Virus record (IMG/VR): IMGVR_UViG_3300050821_006531
Reading direction: 5' to 3' (one strand)
DNA: 61,319 nucleotides
From: a virus
In this document: in pieces, positions 16,967 to 49,978 of the stretch
Numbering within the stretch: position 1 is the stretch's first letter
How the letters are laid out: every line of letters begins with the position of its first letter
The notes under the pieces: generated by a model
Databases searched by the model: none
Told to the model about the DNA's origin: nothing
Seen by the model: only the letters and a program-made list of their open reading frames with translations
Position numbers and translations under genes: made by a program

Positions 16967-18358
16967 GTGTCACGGTGCGCGCTTTGTCCGAACACTCACC
17001 GGCAAGTGCTGCCGGACGGCCCAGAGGACGCCCAAGTCGCGGTTGTCGGCGAAGGTCCCGGCTACTGGGAGAACCGTAACGGCATACCCTTCAGTGGCCC
17101 GAGCGGACAAGAACTAAATCTGACGTACTTGCCACTCGCTGGTCTGACGCGGGAGGGAGTGTTCGTCACAAACGTGCTCCAGTGCCGCTGTGAAGCGAAC
17201 GGTGTGGACCGCAAGCCCAGCGACGAACTCGCCCGAGTCTGCGCGAACAACCACCTGTGGGCCGAGCTTGAGCGCGTCAACCCACGAATTGTAGTTGCGT
17301 GCGGAGCTACAGCGTGCGCTCAGTTCGACGACACGATCAACCTGGAGCTGGAGCATGGGTTTCCAAGACCAGCGAGTCACGGGGACTGGCAAGGGATGCT
17401 CGTGCCGATGTACCACCCGGCGGCAGGACTCCACAAGGGTCGATTCATGATCCCGCAGTTGGCCGACTGGGAGAACCTGGGGAAGTGGATGCGTGGGAAG
17501 TGGCGCGTTCCCGATAGTGGTGACGTGCCGTGGGCTCCCCTGGACTACCAGCTTGTCAGCGGCGGCGTGGAACGGAGCAGCCTTGACCAGTTCCTGGCGC
17601 TCGACACAGAAAGCGACGAGGGCAGACCTTACTCAATTCAATGGTCGAGCAAGGCAAATTCCGGAAGGATGCTGCTGGTGGCGGACAGCCACGCGCTCTC
17701 AGACTTCCGGGAGTACGTTCACAGCCGCAACCCTCTGGTCGTAATGCACAATGTGGTTCACGACCTGGAGACTCTCAGGCAGTTGGGCATACACGTTGAA
17801 CGCTTCCGGGACACCATGCAGGAGTTGTACCACTTGGGTAACCTACCCCAAGGACTCAAAGCCGCTGTCTACCGCGTGTTCGGCTACCGCATGACTTCCT
17901 ATGACGAAGTGGTCACACCACACTCGAAGAACGTGCTTGAGTCCTGGCTCGCCGAAGCGCTCGCTGTAGCGACTGAAATGCGGGAGACTACAGCGCACCC
18001 TGTAGGCCCGGACTGCCCGACTTGTGGCAAGAAGCACCGCAAGGACGTGTCCGTGGACAGGCCGCACGAGGCTGAGTCCGTGCTGCACAGGGTTCTGGGC
18101 AAGCTTGACACGGACTACGACCCATGGAAGCAGCCGTGGTTTGACAAAGGTGTTGAAAAGCGCCGGCTGCTGGGCCAGGACTGGCTGCCCGCGCTTGAGG
18201 GCTGCGTGGGGCGGATGCCAAGGCGTTCGATCGTACATGCGCCACTTGACCGGCAGGTTCAGTACGCGGTTGGGGACGCAGACTGGACTCTGCGTCTGGC
18301 GAACTGGCTGGACAAGGAACGAACCCGCATTGTAGCCGAGGAGTGGGCCGTTGCCTAA
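16967..18358 (+). CDS. Family-4 uracil-DNA glycosylase domain fused to a PolA-type 3'-5' exonuclease domain
   Basis: UDG motifs: GEGPGYWENRNGIPFSGPSGQEL, VFVTNVLQCR, MYHPAAGLH. Exonuclease motifs: LALDTESD (Exo I), VMHNVVHDLETL (Exo II), YAVGDADWTLRL (Exo III). Confidence 0.85.
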   Translation: MSRCALCPNTHRQVLPDGPEDAQVAVVGEGPGYWENRNGIPFSGPSGQELNLTYLPLAGLTREGVFVTNVLQCRCEANGVDRKPSDELARVCANNHLWAELERVNPRIVVACGATACAQFDDTINLELEHGFPRPASHGDWQGMLVPMYHPAAGLHKGRFMIPQLADWENLGKWMRGKWRVPDSGDVPWAPLDYQLVSGGVERSSLDQFLALDTESDEGRPYSIQWSSKANSGRMLLVADSHALSDFREYVHSRNPLVVMHNVVHDLETLRQLGIHVERFRDTMQELYHLGNLPQGLKAAVYRVFGYRMTSYDEVVTPHSKNVLESWLAEALAVATEMRETTAHPVGPDCPTCGKKHRKDVSVDRPHEAESVLHRVLGKLDTDYDPWKQPWFDKGVEKRRLLGQDWLPALEGCVGRMPRRSIVHAPLDRQVQYAVGDADWTLRLANWLDKERTRIVAEEWAVA

Positions 18359-18551
18359 ACCCTGGAGCAGTCAACCGCGCGAAGTGCTCGAAGAGTGGCT
18401 CAAAGCCTGTCTGTGGGTTAAGTACTCGAAGCTGACGGACTGGGAGCGGGACTTTTGCACCTCACTTGAGGATCAACTGGAGCGCCGGGGCACGCTCACC
18501 CAGAAGCAGCAAGAGATTCTCGAACGAATTTACGCGGAGCGTACCGACTAA
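18351..18551 (+). CDS. Hypothetical 66-aa protein between the exonuclease and polymerase ORFs
   Basis: A TTG start overlaps the upstream stop. TAATG coupling to the polymerase ORF. Reads LTDWERDFCTSLEDQLERRGTLTQKQQEILERIY. Confidence 0.45.
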   Translation: MPKPWSSQPREVLEEWLKACLWVKYSKLTDWERDFCTSLEDQLERRGTLTQKQQEILERIYAERTD

Positions 18552-21007
18552 TGGCTCTGTACGCAGGCGTCGAACTTCCCGGTCACCCCGATCCTGTCAA
18601 CGTTGCAAAGCTCGACCGGCTGCCACTACGCATGATCGGCGATATGCAAAGGTTTGGCTTTAAGATTGATCCCCCGCACTTCGCCGAACTGTCGTCGCGG
18701 CTGCAAGCAAGACAGCAAGCTCTGCGCAAAGAAATCGCCAACGAAATCCCACCCAAGGCACTGGACCGGTTTGTCGAGGTGCTGGCCGCAACCGACAACG
18801 AGGACGACGACTCAGACTCAGACGCAGTCGTGGACGACTCCGGCCTGTTCAACGTCGAATCGAGCAAGCGCGTGGCTGAACTACTCTACGACACCCTGCG
18901 CCTGGACCTGACCGCTGGCGTCAAAGTCAAAAAGACCAAGGGCGGGGACCGGCTCTCGACCGGCAAGAAAACCCTGGAGCAACTCAAGCGCGCGCACCCG
19001 GTCGTGCCTCTGATTCTTGAGTACCGTGAGTGTTCAAAGCTTGACGGAACGTATGCGCGAGCGATGCCACGAAGGGCCGTGCTGCACCCCAAGGGACCGG
19101 ACTGCCCCAGGTGCGGGCGCAAGCACTGGGAAGACGAGTGGCGGGTGCACACACAACTATTGACGACTCGCACAGCCACGGGTCGCACCGCGTCGAAGAA
19201 TCCGAACCTCGGCAACATACCCGGTAGGTCCGCACTGGGCCGCGAAATTCGCGCTGGTTTTATTCCGAGTGTTGGACACGTAATCTGCCAGCGCGATTGG
19301 GCACAAATAGAATTGCGATTAATGGCTGACAGGTCCGGTGACTCAACAATGATTGAAGTCTACCAAGCAGACGGAGATATTCACGTACGTACTGCAATGG
19401 GTACGTTTGAAATCTCCGATCCAGAAAAGGTAGATAAATTATTACATAGAGCGCCATCGAAAAATACAAATTTCGCGGTCTGCATAGCCGGTGGTCAAAA
19501 AGTCCTTACTGACCGTGGATTGATTCCCATAGAACGAGTAGGATATCATGATCGTGTATGGGATGGACAAGAATTTGTTTTTCATCAAGGTGTGATCTGC
19601 CAGGGCTTCAAGGAGGTCATCGAGTATGACGGACTCACAGCAACCCCGGACCACAAAGTCTGGCTCAAGGATGGTACCGTTTCGACGCTCGAAGGGGCGC
19701 GTTCAGCCAGACGACAACTTGCTCATACCGAGGTTGGCGGCATTGCCATTAGGTTCCTTGAGACTGAACTTGGACGGAATCCACCGGCGAGGCCCACGTC
19801 GAGAAAAGTGCATCTTCGCGACATGCGTGGAATGTGGACGTACGCGAGAAGTGACGTTGAGCAATTTGTTGCTGAGAAGAACAACGAACTGTACTTGCAA
19901 GAAAACCTATCCAGATCCACGCTCCACAATGCTTTTGAAGAGATGGCAGGCCATCCTTCAGCGATGCAACAACCCAAACAACGAGTCGTACCGAAACTAT
20001 GGAGGACGTGGCATCGAGTGCAAGTTTGGCTCCGCGAAAGAGTTTCTCGACTACGTTTTAAAGAGACTCCCACATCCTTCCTACAAAAAAGTGGACATTG
20101 GCAGGAAGAACAACGACGGCCATTACGAGAAGGGCAATCTACGGCTGGAGACCCGGAGTCAGAACTTACGCAACAGGCGCTCAAATCGGTTCGTGGAGTA
20201 TCGCGGGCGTTTGGTTACGCACGCGGACTTGTACGACCTGCTGAGACGCGACTATCCAGACTTCAAGCTCAGCCTAATACGCACACGCAATTTGGCTGCT
20301 CTTGGGGTTCCGTGGCAGGAAATACTCCAAAGAACCCCACGGAAACATTGGAAAAGGAAGGCAAAAAGTACGCCTGGGTCTTCGATATTCTAAATGCAGG
20401 ACCACGTCGCCGTTTCACCGTATCGGGCCGGCTGGTTAGTAACTGCTACCTCATCACCGGAGCTGGACTGTTGGACCTGATGGCCTCGACGTTCGCGACT
20501 GCTGGCCAACCAATGCCAGACTACATGACTGAGCGCTGGTGCAACGACTTCATTGAGAAGTGGTTTGGGTTGTACCCCGGTGTGAAGAAGTATTTGTCGA
20601 GCGAGGAAGAGAAAGCTCGCAGATACGGGATTGTATGGACAGCGACGGGCAGAGTCCGGCGCATCCCAGAAGCGCGAAGCTGCCACCCTTGGATACAAGA
20701 CGCCGGAGTGCGCCAGGGTTGTAATCACGGTATACAGGGCTATTCGGCGGATCTCATGAAGTTGGCAATGGGAGAATTGGACGAGAGATTAGCGAGCTTG
20801 CGCGAGTACGGAGTACAGTCATTTTGTTTGATGTCAATTTATGATGAATTACTGGTGGAAGCTCCCGAGGATGATGCTTTGACAGTCTCGGCCTGCATGG
20901 AGACTGTTATGGATAATGTTCTATTGGACCGCCAAACAGGCAGTCTTCTCTGCAAGGTTCCAATAAAGTCAGACGGGAGTATTCTTACCAGATGGAACAA
21001 GAACTAG
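18551..21007 (+). CDS. Family-A DNA polymerase, polymerase domain, containing an intein
   Basis: Motif A DWAQIELRLMA. Motif B RAPSKNTNFAV | intein | CYLITGAGL. Motif C MSIYDELLVEAP. Also NHGIQGYSADLMK. Confidence 0.85.
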   Translation: MALYAGVELPGHPDPVNVAKLDRLPLRMIGDMQRFGFKIDPPHFAELSSRLQARQQALRKEIANEIPPKALDRFVEVLAATDNEDDDSDSDAVVDDSGLFNVESSKRVAELLYDTLRLDLTAGVKVKKTKGGDRLSTGKKTLEQLKRAHPVVPLILEYRECSKLDGTYARAMPRRAVLHPKGPDCPRCGRKHWEDEWRVHTQLLTTRTATGRTASKNPNLGNIPGRSALGREIRAGFIPSVGHVICQRDWAQIELRLMADRSGDSTMIEVYQADGDIHVRTAMGTFEISDPEKVDKLLHRAPSKNTNFAVCIAGGQKVLTDRGLIPIERVGYHDRVWDGQEFVFHQGVICQGFKEVIEYDGLTATPDHKVWLKDGTVSTLEGARSARRQLAHTEVGGIAIRFLETELGRNPPARPTSRKVHLRDMRGMWTYARSDVEQFVAEKNNELYLQENLSRSTLHNAFEEMAGHPSAMQQPKQRVVPKLWRTWHRVQVWLRERVSRLRFKETPTSFLQKSGHWQEEQRRPLREGQSTAGDPESELTQQALKSVRGVSRAFGYARGLVRPAETRLSRLQAQPNTHTQFGCSWGSVAGNTPKNPTETLEKEGKKYAWVFDILNAGPRRRFTVSGRLVSNCYLITGAGLLDLMASTFATAGQPMPDYMTERWCNDFIEKWFGLYPGVKKYLSSEEEKARRYGIVWTATGRVRRIPEARSCHPWIQDAGVRQGCNHGIQGYSADLMKLAMGELDERLASLREYGVQSFCLMSIYDELLVEAPEDDALTVSACMETVMDNVLLDRQTGSLLCKVPIKSDGSILTRWNKN
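19481..20443 (+). mobile_element. Intein (321 codons) inserted in PolA motif B
   Basis: Cys1 in CIAGGQKVLTDRGLIPIERV; block B LTATPDHKVWL; blocks F/G VFDILNAGPRRRFTVSGRLVSN followed by the +1 Cys (tgc at 20444). Confidence 0.8.
19626..20393 (+). CDS. +1-frame ORF nested in the intein: homing-endonuclease-associated DNA-binding-like protein
   Basis: 255 codons are open in the +1 frame. Reads CVECGRTREVTLSNLLLRRTTNCTC...RWQAILQRCNNPNNESYRNYGGRGIECKF...DIGRKNNDGHYEKGNLRLETRSQNLRNRR. The true start is uncertain. Confidence 0.6.
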   Translation: MTDSQQPRTTKSGSRMVPFRRSKGRVQPDDNLLIPRLAALPLGSLRLNLDGIHRRGPRREKCIFATCVECGRTREVTLSNLLLRRTTNCTCKKTYPDPRSTMLLKRWQAILQRCNNPNNESYRNYGGRGIECKFGSAKEFLDYVLKRLPHPSYKKVDIGRKNNDGHYEKGNLRLETRSQNLRNRRSNRFVEYRGRLVTHADLYDLLRRDYPDFKLSLIRTRNLAALGVPWQEILQRTPRKHWKRKAKSTPGSSIF

Positions 21008-21537
21008 AACGCTGGCTACCTATACAAGATTGGCCAGACTATGAGGTCTCCAATTTGGGGCGGATCAAAAGCCACCACAACCGGAGCTACAAGAATCACA
21101 TTTTGCGCCCGGTGTTCACGACCAGAAACGGTTATATGAAAGTCACACTTTGTTATAACAGGATTCGCCGTGACGTTCTTGTGCATCGAATAGTGGCGAC
21201 GGCTTTCCTTCGGCCGCCTAAAGCCGGTGAAGAAGCCAATCACAAAAACCTTGATAAGGTGGATAACCGAGCAATCAATCTGGAATGGGTGACTCGCGCG
21301 GAGAATGCTTAACACGCCATGGCGTGGGGTCGTAAGTTCATCCCTTCCTTGCGCTGTCCAGAATGTATGGCTCGTGGAGAATCCAGCGGTCAAAGTAAGT
21401 TGAAGAATCGCCAAGTCCTAAAAATTAGAGAACTGGTGAAAACCGGCATTTCCATGAGCGAAGTGGCACGTAGGTTTTCAGTCAGCCCTCACACCATAAC
21501 TCGCATACGAGACAGAAAAAGTTGGAGACATATTTGA
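20992..21537 (+). pseudogene. HNH (NUMOD4 + HNH_3-type) homing endonuclease with an in-frame TAA
   Basis: WLPIQDWPDYEVSNLGRIKS...VHRIVATAFL...ANHKNLDKVDNRAINLEWVTRAENA, then TAA (21310-21312), then HAMAWGRK...SKLKNRQVLKIRELVKTGISMSEVARRFSVSPHTITRIRDRKSWRHI in the same frame. Confidence 0.75.
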
Positions 21538-22438: not shown

Positions 22439-22620
22439 GCTTGGGCGACCCACCTGTTGTCACACCTGTTGAAGAAGCGCCGCTCAAGTTGGGCGTGATG
22501 CTGATTTCTATGGCGGCGGTTGCTACCAGCATGTGGAGGCTGTCTTGGGCTGAGCGGCTGGTTGTGTTGTTCACCGGTCGAGTGTACTTGCAGCAGTTAG
22601 TCAGCCCGATCAAACAATGA
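22435..22620 (+). CDS. Hypothetical small protein with one hydrophobic segment
   Basis: A 61-aa ORF with GTGA/ATGA coupling. Contains LGVMLISMAAVATSMW. Confidence 0.4.
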   Translation: MSLGDPPVVTPVEEAPLKLGVMLISMAAVATSMWRLSWAERLVVLFTGRVYLQQLVSPIKQ

Positions 22621-23795
22621 AGCTCACGTACAAGCCCCTCGCCAATCCGCTCCTGATCCTGTCAGACTCACCGTCCCTGCTCTCCGGGCTCTCCCGCGCC
22701 GGTCGCGACATTGCTTCGCTCGCGGCTACGCTCCCACAATTTCGTGTTGGTTACCTGGGTCGAGGCGGTTTCAACCAGCGCAAGTTCCCCTGGCACCAGG
22801 TAGACTTTCCAGAGTCCGCGCAGTGGGGCGAGGGCTACCTTGAACGCGTCTGGAACGATTTCTCGGGCGGCGAACCCGGCGTGATACTGAGCAACTGGGA
22901 CCTCAGCCGACTACTGTGGTTCACGCACCCGCAAGGCACCGGCCTCGAAGCCTTCGCCGGTCCCAACCGGAACTTCCAGAAGTGGGTTTACAGCCCCGTG
23001 GACAGCACTGGCCCCAACGGACAAACGCTCAGTGTGGCCAGCCAAGCCTGCCTGCACGGGTTCGACCGTGCCTGCGTCGCCAGTGAGTTCGGATGCCAAG
23101 TCATGCGAGCGAGTGGCCGCACGGACGCGGACTGGTTGCCGCATGGGCTCTGGTTGGACAAGTTCCACCCATACGCCAACGCGAAGGCGTTGCTGGGTGG
23201 GGACGAGAACGGTGTCTACGTCGGGGCGAACATGACCAACCAGGCCAGGAAAGACATGCCCGCAGCCTTCGAGTGTGCAGCCGCTCTCCGGCAAGAGTAC
23301 GGCAGTAAGTTCAAGTTCTGGCTGCACACCGACGTGCTGGTGCGGTACTGGAACGTGTACGCGCTCGCGGCGGACTACGGAGTGCAGGACTGCCTCGAAG
23401 TCACAACCGAGTTGACGGACGAACAGCTCGCGGTCAGGTACTCGGCCTGTGACTGCACCGTGAACCCAACCGCTGGCGAAGGGTTTTCGTACGTGACAGC
23501 GGAGTCGCAGGCGTGCGGGACAGCCTGCGTGGTCACGGACTACGCGGCGGGCGCGGAGCTGGTCGAGGAAGACTGCCGGGTGCTGCCAGTCGCAATGCGC
23601 GTAGACACGCAGCACAATGTGTTGCGGGCTGTGCTGAGCGGGTATGGGTTTGCGGCAAAGGTCAAGGAGCAGGTGGAGCGTAAGCGCGGGGACTGGGAGT
23701 ACAGGAGTGAGCAGTTAGCAGACAGAGTTTCGTATTTGGGATGGGAAAAGTTGAAGCACCCGTGGACGAAGTGGTTGCTGGAGGGGTTGAAGTGA
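22617..23795 (+). CDS. GT-B fold glycosyltransferase (GT4-like)
   Basis: NPTAGEGFSYVTAESQACGTACVVTDYAAGAELVEE resembles the E-x7-E region of group-1 glycosyltransferases. Confidence 0.6.
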   Translation: MKLTYKPLANPLLILSDSPSLLSGLSRAGRDIASLAATLPQFRVGYLGRGGFNQRKFPWHQVDFPESAQWGEGYLERVWNDFSGGEPGVILSNWDLSRLLWFTHPQGTGLEAFAGPNRNFQKWVYSPVDSTGPNGQTLSVASQACLHGFDRACVASEFGCQVMRASGRTDADWLPHGLWLDKFHPYANAKALLGGDENGVYVGANMTNQARKDMPAAFECAAALRQEYGSKFKFWLHTDVLVRYWNVYALAADYGVQDCLEVTTELTDEQLAVRYSACDCTVNPTAGEGFSYVTAESQACGTACVVTDYAAGAELVEEDCRVLPVAMRVDTQHNVLRAVLSGYGFAAKVKEQVERKRGDWEYRSEQLADRVSYLGWEKLKHPWTKWLLEGLK

Positions 23796-48019: not shown

Positions 48020-49978
48020 TCAGGAGGTCTTCAGAGTCACGTCCCCGGCCCCATCGTTTGAGAGCTTGGGAGGCGCTTCGTCAGTGGCTTTGCGGCCTTG
48101 AGCGTTCGCAATCATGCCAATGCCAAGCTGGGCCTGGAGCTGGAGCCGACTGAGTTCATCGTTGGGCACTTGCAGACTTGGCGGCGCGAAGTTCATCTTG
48201 CCCAAATTCTCCATCAGAGTGAACACCGACAGGTAACCCATCTTGCTCAGCATCAGATCTTCCATGCGTTCTTGCATGGCGGCACTGTTGAGCAGGCTGC
48301 CGGGCTTGAACGTAAACGTGAACGAGTCGAACATTTGCCGGGCACGCATATACTGCGGGCGCGGATTGTCGGCGGCGAGCGCGTCTTCGGTCGCGCCGAT
48401 GTCGCCGGGGGTGCCGTCCGGCACGTCGTCAGGAATGAAGGTTCCGGGGTCGTAGTCGAAGTCCTCGGGAGTGACGGCTTGTGGGCCAAACTTAGCAACT
48501 CGCTTGGAGATCGTGTCGAACTCGGCAATGCAGTAGAGGTATTGCTCGGCGAAGTCTTTCATGAATCCTTCAAGGATTCGGGACCGGAGGCGGTTCCCCG
48601 GCGTCATCATTTTCATGAGAGTGTCGAGAGTGTCGTCGGAGGGGAGCTGGCCGAGTTGGCTGACCTGGGTCATGTCGGCGGTGCCGGACAGCTTCTGAAT
48701 CATTGTCTCGATCCAGTTGACGTGCTGCCAGAGGGACTGCTGAAGAGGCGGTTCGACTTGGATTTGGATGCCCTTGCCGGCCGCCATGTTGGTACGGATC
48801 TGGTAGCCAGGGGTGCGGGAGTTGAACTTGTTGAGTTCGGCGCGCGAGACGTTGCGGTCAGCCACGACGCCAGGCTGGGCCAGCTTCGCCGCGTGGTCAT
48901 CAATCACACGCAACAAGCTGTTCAAGCTTTCGTTCAGGGGCATCACGTCCCACAGCGGGGCCTTGCCGAGCCAGGACATCGGCCACGGGTTGAGAGTCAG
49001 CTTCAGCAGTGGGAACTGTGCGTGCCAGTACGGACTCGTGTCGTCGTAGAGCAGGCAGTTGCCACCCCAGACAATCAGTCGTTTGAACGGGTAGAGCGGC
49101 GCGCCGGGCGGGACTTGGTACGACCAGGGAGCGGTGGGCTCACCGTCCTTCCACGGACCCATGTACTGGGTTTTGTTCGACTCGTTCGTGCGTGTGTCGT
49201 TCAAGTACATCGTGTTGACGAACACGGTGGGAGTCGCGGGGATTGGTTGGTCGTCGCCGCGCGACTTGCTGAGCGGCCCGGAGTGCTTGTTCTTGGACGT
49301 GCCGCCGAAGGTGCGGGTGAACCAGCCAAACATGCCAGCACTGCCAATGTCTGGCTTTACGTCCTTGCCGTATTCGGCCTGAACCCAATGCGGGGTGCGC
49401 GGCTGACGCAGAATTACCCCGAGCGCGTCTTGGATCGAGTGGTAGGAAATGGGTTCGATCGGGAAGACATTGCGCGGGTCGAGTGCTTCGAGCATCATGT
49501 CTTCGAGGCGACGGTTGTAGTAGAGGTGGCCCCAACCGGTGCCTGCGATTGTGTAGTAGCGCACAAGGTCAGCGAGGCGCAGGTCGATGTTGCGGGAGGT
49601 GTACCAGTCTTCCGCTTCCTTGTTGCAGATTCTGGCCTGGGACTCGTACTTCGGGTTGCGGGTCGCGTAGTTCCAGAAGATGCGGGTGTCGGTCAGGTCA
49701 GCGGTTAAGTCCTCGGCTGTTTTGGCGCAGAGGTTGGCACGGGTGCGGGACAGGGGTTTCGGGGTCGGGACGTACGAAGCCCCGGACTCGCGTTCGTACG
49801 AGAAGATGGAGTTGAGAGCGTTGTCGATCTTGTCAAAGCCCACGGCGGCCTCGACGAACCTGCGGCCTTCCTGCAAGCGCGACTCACACCACTCTAACGT
49901 TTGGTAGTCGCGGGTGCCAGGCTTGACCTCGTCAGCTTCGACGCGGGCGTCGGGGAGTCCGTAGAAGTCGTTGGGCAT
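48020..49978 (-). CDS. Putative portal protein
   Basis: 652 aa, the first large gene after the terminase block. Confidence 0.65.
   Translation of the reverse strand: MPNDFYGLPDARVEADEVKPGTRDYQTLEWCESRLQEGRRFVEAAVGFDKIDNALNSIFSYERESGASYVPTPKPLSRTRANLCAKTAEDLTADLTDTRIFWNYATRNPKYESQARICNKEAEDWYTSRNIDLRLADLVRYYTIAGTGWGHLYYNRRLEDMMLEALDPRNVFPIEPISYHSIQDALGVILRQPRTPHWVQAEYGKDVKPDIGSAGMFGWFTRTFGGTSKNKHSGPLSKSRGDDQPIPATPTVFVNTMYLNDTRTNESNKTQYMGPWKDGEPTAPWSYQVPPGAPLYPFKRLIVWGGNCLLYDDTSPYWHAQFPLLKLTLNPWPMSWLGKAPLWDVMPLNESLNSLLRVIDDHAAKLAQPGVVADRNVSRAELNKFNSRTPGYQIRTNMAAGKGIQIQVEPPLQQSLWQHVNWIETMIQKLSGTADMTQVSQLGQLPSDDTLDTLMKMMTPGNRLRSRILEGFMKDFAEQYLYCIAEFDTISKRVAKFGPQAVTPEDFDYDPGTFIPDDVPDGTPGDIGATEDALAADNPRPQYMRARQMFDSFTFTFKPGSLLNSAAMQERMEDLMLSKMGYLSVFTLMENLGKMNFAPPSLQVPNDELSRLQLQAQLGIGMIANAQGRKATDEAPPKLSNDGAGDVTLKTS

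Follow-up and report, generated by a model that had tools for sequence, protein, structure and literature searches.

How can a phage DNA polymerase gene carry a 321-codon insertion in motif B, and why are two reading frames open across much of that insertion? This question is raised by a locus in IMG/VR virus record IMGVR_UViG_3300050821_006531, of which one strand of 61,319 nt was analyzed (hereafter, the window). A 321-residue insertion in motif B of a family-A polymerase is expected to abolish polymerase function, and inteins normally carry their endonuclease in frame. The original prediction, made from the sequence alone, proposed a motif-B intein whose central region is overlapped by a homing-endonuclease-like open reading frame (ORF) in the +1 frame. 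Our analysis suggests that the insertion is most probably a composite selfish element, i.e., a class-1, DnaE-like mini-intein combined with a separately translated overlapping homing-endonuclease gene. The polymerase gene and the intein are laid out as follows, with slashes marking the intein boundaries and frame 0 denoting the polymerase frame.

18551..21007, + strand: family-A DNA polymerase (pol domain) precursor ORF, 818 codons (ORF list; Pfam DNA_pol_A)
18551-19480, + strand: N-extein
19481..20443, + strand: class-1 intein, 321 codons, in motif B (KNTNFAV/C...N/CYL)
19481-19483, + strand: Cys1 codon of the intein
19481..19720, + strand: Hint N-lobe (blocks A and B) in the polymerase frame (AlphaFold2 (AF2) strands; wobble at frame-0 position 3)
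19643-19654, + strand: TPDH of block B
19733..20329, + strand: frame-0 linker, stop-free, unconserved and Arg/Gln-rich (low AF2 pLDDT; without family match)
20345..20443, + strand: Hint C-lobe (blocks F and G), last residue Asn (AF2 strands; invariant residues)
20444-21007, + strand: C-extein
19626..20393, + strand: nested +1-frame ORF, 255 codons, for a putative I-HmuI-like HNH variant with a helix-turn-helix (HTH)-like tail
20363-20367, + strand: A5 run
20391-20393, + strand: TAA of the nested ORF, within block F

Two stretches of the polymerase ORF product matched Pfam DNA_pol_A (E = 6e-75), the N-terminal one stopping just past the junction, at residue 319, and a Foldseek search with the AF2 model of the precursor returned Taq and Bst Pol I. 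The N-side junction reads ...SKNTNFAV/CIAGGQKVLTDRGLIPIERV...GLTATPDHKVW... at 19481 in the polymerase frame, where the intein starts as CIAGGQKV...TATPDHKV, and after 321 codons the C-side junction reads ...VFDILNAGPRRRFTVSGRLVSN/CYLITGAGL. When the insert is removed, the motif-B-like sequence KNTNFAVCYL is regained, and at the nucleotide level the intein-less site reads ...AAAAATACAAATTTCGCGGTC/TGCTACCTCATCACCGGA.... Every coordinate that had been given for the 321-codon intein, its Cys1, its terminal Asn and the +1 Cys was correct, and the 255-codon nested ORF, its TAA in block F and the A5 run were all found in their places. The nested ORF lies wholly within the insert. The G+C content of the intein is 0.45-0.54, compared with roughly 0.56-0.64 in most flanking windows.

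The residues expected of an intein are conserved. In 18-20 relatives, Cys1 and the TPDH sequence (block A and the TxxH of block B) were invariant. Invariant residues of blocks F and G among relatives were D, N, G, RFT, LV, N and Cys+1. An hhalign comparison of the Hint-lobe profile with the Npu DnaE intein gave a probability of 84.6% and an E-value of 6.8e-6 over 99 columns across both lobes; the Npu DnaE sequence used agrees with the alignment to PDB entry 4kl6, which the intein itself matched with E = 0.02. In the AF2 model of the precursor, the N-lobe (pLDDT 83-91) and the C-lobe (64-90) are both β-rich, whereas the intervening approximately 200 residues scored 26-54. As this model was poor overall (mean pLDDT 55.6, shallow alignment), we used only the contrast between lobes and linker. 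The best tblastn matches of GenBank phages to the spliced extein were single uninterrupted pieces over the insertion site. The frame-0 centre gave no endonuclease match in Pfam, NCBIfam or PHROG, in agreement with the original prediction, which could recognize no endonuclease motif there. Mini-intein alleles without the centre occur naturally at the same motif-B site, and one of them (P0060) resembles a precise deletion of the centre, suggesting that the centre is dispensable for the intein. The window intein thus resembles the DnaE-type class-1 mini-inteins such as Npu DnaE in its apparently homologous Hint lobes, Cys1, TxxH, terminal Asn and Cys+1, but differs from them in being contiguous rather than split, in having Ser in place of His as its penultimate residue and in its approximately 200-residue junk linker.

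The product of the nested ORF had been suspected to resemble a phage homing endonuclease, and it indeed matched HNH families of PHROG (phrog_374, E = 9e-26). Searches with it found 45 homologues, and its relatives numbered 57,347 representatives at E <= 1e-3 and 4,707 at E <= 1e-10. Its AF2 model had a mean pLDDT of 86.4, and only its two ends (residues 1-30 and the final 15), where overlap with blocks B and F is imposed, were of low confidence. Among the BFVD viral models, 88 structural matches were annotated as HNH endonuclease, HTH homing endonuclease or AP2-domain proteins. The best sequence match among solved structures was I-HmuI (PDB ID 1u3e, E = 0.015), and the D-R...N...N of the nested family aligned with D74-H75...N of I-HmuI. 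An hhalign comparison with the window's own HNH_3 ORF, described below, gave E = 0.0024 with a probability of just 12%. The following modules were located in the nested protein.

19824..19898, + strand: four-Cys cluster, C67, C70, C89 and C91 (93-99% conserved in 114 family members)
19962..20015, + strand: RCxNP...YGGRGI motif (R113, G126, R128 and I130 100% conserved)
20094..20180, + strand: β-β-α (His-Me finger-like) core, DIGR...N171...N183 (AF2 strands 157-160 and 172-175, helix 177-182)
20220..20330, + strand: C-terminal three-helix (HTH-like) tail (AF2 helices 199-209, 217-225 and 230-235, pLDDT ~95)

The signature of the 114 family members thus comprises the four Cys, RCxNP, YGxRGI, D159 (85%), R160 (99%), N171 (100%) and N183 (95%), and the Asn residues of the HN(N/H) motif, N171 and N183, are kept. 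The protein resembles the I-HmuI/HNH_3 type in having a predicted β-β-α core followed by a helical, putatively DNA-binding tail, and in that its relatives are free-standing phage genes. It differs from I-HmuI in having Arg at the H75 position, an extra four-Cys cluster, an RCxNP...YGGRGI module, and a score below the Pfam HNH_3 threshold. Though very large, this HNH-like family has no Pfam model match.

The original prediction held that two long open frames over the same DNA were unlikely to arise by chance. When the codons of the +1 ORF were permuted synonymously, keeping the +1 protein and its codon usage, a mean of 11.2 stops appeared in frame 0, and 0/20,000 permutations left it without any. 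The reverse permutation introduced a mean of 5.9 stops into the +1 frame, again with zero stops in 0/20,000. The double open frame is therefore not a chance event in either direction. A frame-0 stop arises because a T-ending codon of the +1 frame precedes a codon starting with AA, AG or GA. In the +1 frame of the window, T-ending codons occurred before such codons in 0/72 cases, compared with 39/182 before other codons. The same avoidance was found among nested genes in general (23/3506 versus 2205/9095, p about 1e-306), whereas 22 free-standing homologues showed no avoidance (523/1471 versus 975/2868, p = 0.31) and had 8-44 stops in the equivalent frame. The overlap thus appears cheap to maintain, as frame 0 is kept stop-free simply by avoiding T before AA, AG or GA.

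The original prediction went further and suggested selection on both frames. We measured selection by column entropy per codon position in a gap-free comparison of 28 distinct inteins of exactly 309 codons, representing 17 lineages with 57-73% nucleotide identity. In the exteins and in the Hint N-lobe and C-lobe, frame-0 position 3 was the most variable (about 1.5 bits, compared with 0.4-0.8). From about intein nucleotide 200 to 860, however, frame-0 position 1, which is the wobble position of the +1 frame, was the most variable (1.31 versus 0.67 and 0.53), and variability returned to frame-0 position 3 at about nucleotide 870. The frame-specific substitution check proposed earlier gave a clear result, in that the wobble follows the +1 frame in the centre and the polymerase frame on either side of it. 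Pairwise amino-acid identity in the centre of the 17 lineages was 0.66 in the +1 frame and 0.35 in both frame 0 and the unused frame; likewise, the window and its relative L083 were 50.7% identical in the +1 frame and 28.6% in frame 0. The entropy switch and the contrast in identity indicate that the +1 frame encodes a protein under purifying selection in the intein centre, and that the frame-0 centre is selected solely for its lack of stops. The claim of dual selection thus stands for the +1 protein and for the stop-freeness of frame 0, but not for the frame-0 amino-acid sequence.

Signals suitable for separate translation of the nested gene are found at its start.

19610..19617, + strand: Shine-Dalgarno sequence AAGGAGGT, 8 nt upstream of the nested ATG, formed by the K-E-V codons of block B

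Both the Shine-Dalgarno sequence and the ATG are built from the block-B codons K-E-V-I-E-Y-D (AAG GAG GTC ... GAG TAT GAC). At this spacing, GAGGT hardly varies among 34 distinct relatives. The ATG stands at offset 145 in 43/49 nested inteins from genomes and metagenomes and in 29 of the 34 distinct upstream sequences. The Glu codon at the Shine-Dalgarno sequence is GAG rather than GAA by 26:3 (background 530:554, p = 6.5e-6), and the Tyr codon at the ATG is TAT rather than TAC by 29:3 (background 221:244, p = 1.3e-6), suggesting that the synonymous choices of the intein frame are biased just as a +1-frame ribosome-binding site and start codon would need. RNA structure around the nested start was unremarkable (z +1.1). 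A weak sigma-70-like match 75 nt upstream of the ATG (TTGATT-18-TATCAT, 19520-19549) may be an internal promoter, but the four sigma-70-like matches in the region, against 1.6 +/- 1.3 expected, are unconvincing. The intein has three X XXY YYZ heptamers, all within the conserved domain, and none was found near the ATG or at the A5 run. Where relatives have well-defined boundaries, the position of the nested stop relative to the intein end ranges from roughly 70 nt upstream to 60 nt downstream. Because of the missing heptamer, the variable stop position and the conserved start signals, independent internal initiation is favoured on sequence grounds and double frameshifting seems unlikely.

The same layout was found in many other genomes. 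A tblastn search of GenBank phages with the +1 product gave matches within genes annotated as "DNA polymerase" in Gardnerella phage vB_Gva_AB1 and several Streptococcus Javan prophages. These polymerases contain a homologous motif-B intein (KGKIAELA/CIAEGE...LVHN/CGYGG) with a junk-like centre, and the tblastn match lies in the +1 frame as an intact ORF of 257-267 codons. In the window, AB1 and the Javan phages alike, the nested ATG is exactly 145 nt into the intein. A scan of IMG/VR viral contigs, with an alignment of three nested proteins as the query, returned 80 loci, of which 54 nest the HNH-like ORF in a long PolA-type ORF in the +1 frame (900-1040 codons for most host ORFs, some being cut by contig ends), 4 have it in the +2 frame of such an ORF and about 25 are free-standing. 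A further 80 loci were returned by a scan of bacterial genomes (one per species) with the Hint-lobe profile. They came from Clostridia, Lachnospiraceae, Ruminococcus, Streptococcus, Gardnerella, Selenomonas, Megasphaera, Acidithiobacillus, Methylobacterium, Spirochaetes, Bacteroidetes and others; about 34 were mini-inteins without any endonuclease, and in 45 the two lobes flanked an HNH-like gene, which was in the +1 frame in every case. A metagenome scan added 5 loci with the same nesting. In none of these collections (GenBank phages, IMG/VR, bacterial genomes and metagenomes) was the HNH-like gene in frame with the intein. Stops in related genomes had been named as a check on the two frames. 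Of the 49 nested inteins taken from cellular genomes and metagenomes, not one had a stop in frame 0, and 47 had an intact nested match.

The closest relatives of the window, L083 (JGI metagenome) and L084 (ENA), found through P0001 and P0004, share the nesting. A blastn search of the window polA region against GenBank phages gave no match, and the window polymerase has about 30% amino-acid identity with those of GenBank phages, with no close relative. A scan of genome contigs with the spliced extein found no relative, and the metagenome scan found no close one, the highest full-length identity being 38%.

Comparison of pairs of loci showed inteins that are 93-99% identical while their polA exteins are 68-90% identical. 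In one pair, the intein identity was 99.2% compared with 81% and 85% for the exteins, and in another it was 96.3% compared with 79% and 70%. Such a gap is the trace that would be expected if the intein had recently been transferred horizontally as one unit with its nested gene, and provides indirect support for an active homing function.

Several variants of this arrangement were observed among the relatives. In L100, L123, L125 and L157, a related intein occupies a second polA site about 375 nt downstream of motif B (...VEN/C...); these inteins also nest a +1 HNH-like gene, and those genes are the most similar to that of the window. A minority of loci, L019, L024-L026, L174 and L175, have the HNH-like gene in the +2 frame of the intein (CFG[KE]DT...), where Pfam identified PolA as the host for L024 and gave no match for L019, which suggests an independent origin or an indel-shifted derivative. 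In L077, L135 and L141, the nested ORF is broken by a stop while frame 0 is still stop-free; together with the mini-intein P0060, these are apparent decay stages. A single polA ORF of L005 (3-4257) appears to contain three inteins; in the first, an HNH-like gene is nested in the +1 frame, whereas another includes a canonical HNH_3 domain in frame. In L088 (1856-5455, human gut metagenome ERZ918240), and also in L085 and L086, a related polA occurs in fractured form. There, a split-intein N fragment (CIAEST...ATPEH) closes the upstream ORF, a GIY-YIG gene follows, and the next ORF starts with an intein C fragment (MKTYDILNAGPHNRFMANGRIVSN/S) and also has a motif-B mini-intein.

Taken together, these results fit the one of the two expression schemes put forward in the original prediction in which a mini-intein is combined with a separately expressed out-of-frame gene, in agreement with the conserved Shine-Dalgarno sequence and ATG and with the natural mini-inteins. 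In such an element, ribosomes translating polA would keep to frame 0 and read through about 200 codons of meaningless, stop-free linker. The Hint lobes would then fold and excise the 321-residue insert, so that motif B is regained. Other ribosomes would begin at the ATG at 19626, guided by the Shine-Dalgarno sequence, and yield the 255-residue I-HmuI-like HNH/HTH protein, a step to which the conservation of the start signals points. The nested protein would presumably cut or nick intein-less polA alleles at the motif-B coding sequence, and repair would copy the intein and the nested gene into the cut allele, i.e., homing.

A number of observations weigh against this composite element. Splicing, internal initiation and DNA cleavage are all steps that we infer. 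On the intein side, the penultimate residue, usually His in inteins, is Ser in the window and its close relatives. The intein scored 14-20 bits with TIGR01445, below the cut-off of 24.5, and had no Pfam Hint match at threshold; Pfam searches with 18 mini-intein sequences gave only weak Hint_2 matches, in 4/18 members. Since the curated Hint and intein models all fell below threshold, the intein appears to belong to a divergent Hint family. The Foldseek search with the precursor model against PDB gave PolA structures only, leaving the Hint fold without structural confirmation. For the nested protein, neither Pfam HNH, HNH_3 included, nor NCBIfam gave a match at threshold, and Foldseek with its model against PDB gave no match with E < 0.5. 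The position of the His-Me general-base His, at the end of strand 1, is occupied by Arg in 99% of the 114 members, and the window copy also lacks the adjacent Asp, reading G159-R160. A canonical HNH mechanism is therefore doubtful, the chemistry is uncertain, and the nuclease activity of the nested protein is putative. Finally, the closest nested protein is 49-51% identical to that of the window, and because no close relative was found, the selection that we describe applies to the family and not to the window copy by itself.

These points bear most directly on an alternative in which the nested protein is not a nuclease, but a DNA-binding descendant of an HNH homing endonuclease, or is defunct, while the intein is mobilised in trans or is immobile. 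The Arg substitution, the Asp missing from the window copy, and the lack of a Pfam HNH or PDB fold match would all be explained, and a second HNH gene just downstream of polA is at hand. However, the family is under strong purifying selection, is large and behaves as free-standing mobile genes, the intein and nested gene move as a unit between diverged polA alleles, and the downstream HNH gene has an in-frame stop. We therefore regard this alternative as unlikely. Another way to account for the two frames is a pair of programmed frameshifts, +1 after block B and -1 near the A5 run, which would produce an in-frame intein-endonuclease fusion. The original prediction had offered this as its other scheme, with a slip at the A5 run, which does lie near the end of the nested ORF, and canonical inteins with an in-frame HNH do exist, as in L005. 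But the A5 run lacks a heptamer, the stop of the nested ORF varies widely in position among relatives, and the Shine-Dalgarno sequence and ATG at its start are conserved. Moreover, ribosomes that leave frame 0 would have no need for approximately 200 stop-free codons in more than 100 loci, and the low-confidence ends of the nested protein (30 residues at the start, 15 at the end) are tails rather than domain linkers. The frameshift scheme did not survive these comparisons, and we consider it very improbable.

Two further alternatives question the intein or the sequence itself. The insert could be a tolerated, non-splicing insertion with a hidden endonuclease gene and no intein, for which the ShiLan domain in a phage methylase (PMC11855218) is a precedent and which would agree with the subthreshold scores of the curated Hint and intein models. 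Yet the splicing residues and blocks (Cys1, TxxH, blocks F and G, terminal Asn, Cys+1) are conserved, both lobes of the profile appear homologous to the Npu DnaE intein, and the insert sits within catalytic motif B, which makes a non-splicing insertion scarcely credible. Alternatively, two compensating indels introduced during sequencing or assembly could have displaced an endonuclease domain that was originally in frame. The same frame relation, however, is shared by over 100 assemblies made independently of one another, among them isolated phages and the complete genomes of cultured Gardnerella, Ruminococcus and Allobaculum, and a stop-free frame 0 has P < 5e-5 under that model, so that the probability of an artefact is practically negligible.

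The original prediction knew of no described intein with this arrangement, but this part of it did not hold. Non-canonical inteins were described by Gorbalenya in 1998, as cited in two preprints (10.1101/2025.01.02.630785 and 10.64898/2026.09.14.751524), both of which report out-of-frame intein endonucleases. In their survey of actinobacteriophages, Gosselin, Arsenault and Gogarten found antisense LAGLIDADG and VSR-like endonucleases in inteins, as well as an endonuclease VII-like one "in reading frame 3", and called such architectures rare; DNA polymerase III alpha is a polymerase-type host there, and 'DNA polymerase' is among the hosts of the non-canonical inteins (bioRxiv 10.1101/2025.01.02.630785). 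As in the window, those inteins have an endonuclease ORF on the same strand between the splicing blocks but in another frame, an in-frame centre without recognizable structure, and a proposed origin in the invasion of an intein by a free-standing endonuclease gene. In contrast, the host site here is motif B of a family-A PolA, the enzyme is an I-HmuI-like HNH variant with an HTH rather than EndoVII-like, the frame is +1, the Shine-Dalgarno sequence and ATG are conserved and formed from block-B codons, and the distribution covers several bacterial phyla. Phillips et al. described a cyanobacterial DnaX intein with a LAGLIDADG endonuclease in a +2 ORF under purifying selection (bioRxiv 10.64898/2026.09.14.751524). 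It shares with the window an overlapping ORF in a contiguous intein, coexisting mini-intein alleles, and purifying selection on the alternative frame with a relaxed intein-frame centre, but its host is a cellular dnaX with a +2 LAGLIDADG gene, whereas here phage or prophage polA genes carry an HNH-like gene, mostly in the +1 frame.

Fractured genes (Dassa et al. 2009, PMC2677866) likewise have an endonuclease gene of the free-standing type at the endonuclease position of an intein, with short coding overlaps, and the fractured state is seen in relatives of the window intein family at another polA site (L088). The window differs from them in that its host gene is unbroken, a single 818-codon ORF and not a fractured gene, frame 0 is stop-free, and the intein is predicted to splice in cis. 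ShiLan (Arsenault et al. 2025, PMC11855218) also has an HNH gene hidden in an alternative frame of a stop-free insertion. That insert in a mycobacteriophage methylase, however, has neither splicing domains nor a detectable ribosome-binding site, and leaderless initiation was proposed, whereas the window has clear predicted Hint lobes and a strong Shine-Dalgarno sequence. No report of a family-A polymerase intein with such a layout was found in the literature searched, but that search was incomplete and this is absence of evidence only. The principle of an out-of-frame intein endonuclease is thus already published, and the novelty of the present case is moderate. The present case differs from those described in the host site, the endonuclease family, the frame, the clearly identifiable, conserved block-B Shine-Dalgarno sequence and ATG, and the wide distribution with apparent long-term stability (at least 17 deep lineages, with no in-frame derivative seen).

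We also propose, tentatively and with more doubt than confidence, that the overlapped layout is an ancient, selectively maintained design and not a passing intermediate, which would make this the largest and most widespread known family of overlapped-frame inteins and endonucleases. As part of this proposal, the use of block-B codons as ribosome-binding site and start may physically lock the two selfish parts together, and the nested enzyme may be an unrecognised His-Me finger variant with D-R...N...N in place of D-H...N...N. The polA family may keep free-standing, nested +1, nested +2, split (fractured) and mini states, and also an in-frame state with a different, canonical HNH_3 domain.

The series of a free-standing gene, overlapped nesting, split intein and mini-intein is a natural one that bears on how inteins gained their homing endonucleases, and speaks to the model of "splicing first, endonuclease invades later"; it also indicates that the overlapped state can last across deep divergence. 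As a case of dual coding it is clean, in that one frame is selected just against stops and translation signals are embedded in a catalytic protein motif. The natural mini-inteins of roughly 110-130 residues are potential tools, as would be a nicking or cleaving activity whose specificity for a conserved polymerase motif is possibly new. In the gene calls that we examined in metagenome contigs, the polymerase was truncated or the nested gene was missed, so an intein and a whole gene can go unannotated, e.g., in prophages of gut Firmicutes and Gardnerella.

Outside the intein, a free-standing NUMOD4 and HNH_3 gene (20992-21537, + strand) overlaps the polA stop codon. It is interrupted by a TAA at 21310-21312, and the same frame goes on as an HTH_7 ORF (21319-21537). 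Pfam identified NUMOD4 (E = 8e-15), HNH_3 (E = 6e-9) and HTH_7 (E = 2e-5) in this gene, apparently another homing-endonuclease gene of the polA locus that an in-frame stop divides. More than one gene encodes the polymerase: a UDG-superfamily domain fused to a 3'-5' exonuclease is found at 16967-18358, and a 66-codon ORF (18351-18551) lies between this gene and that of the pol domain. Other genes of the window encode a tyrosine integrase (400-1362), a glycosyltransferase (22617-23795) and an SU10-like portal (48020-49978), and its G+C content is about 60%. The window looks like a temperate phage or prophage.

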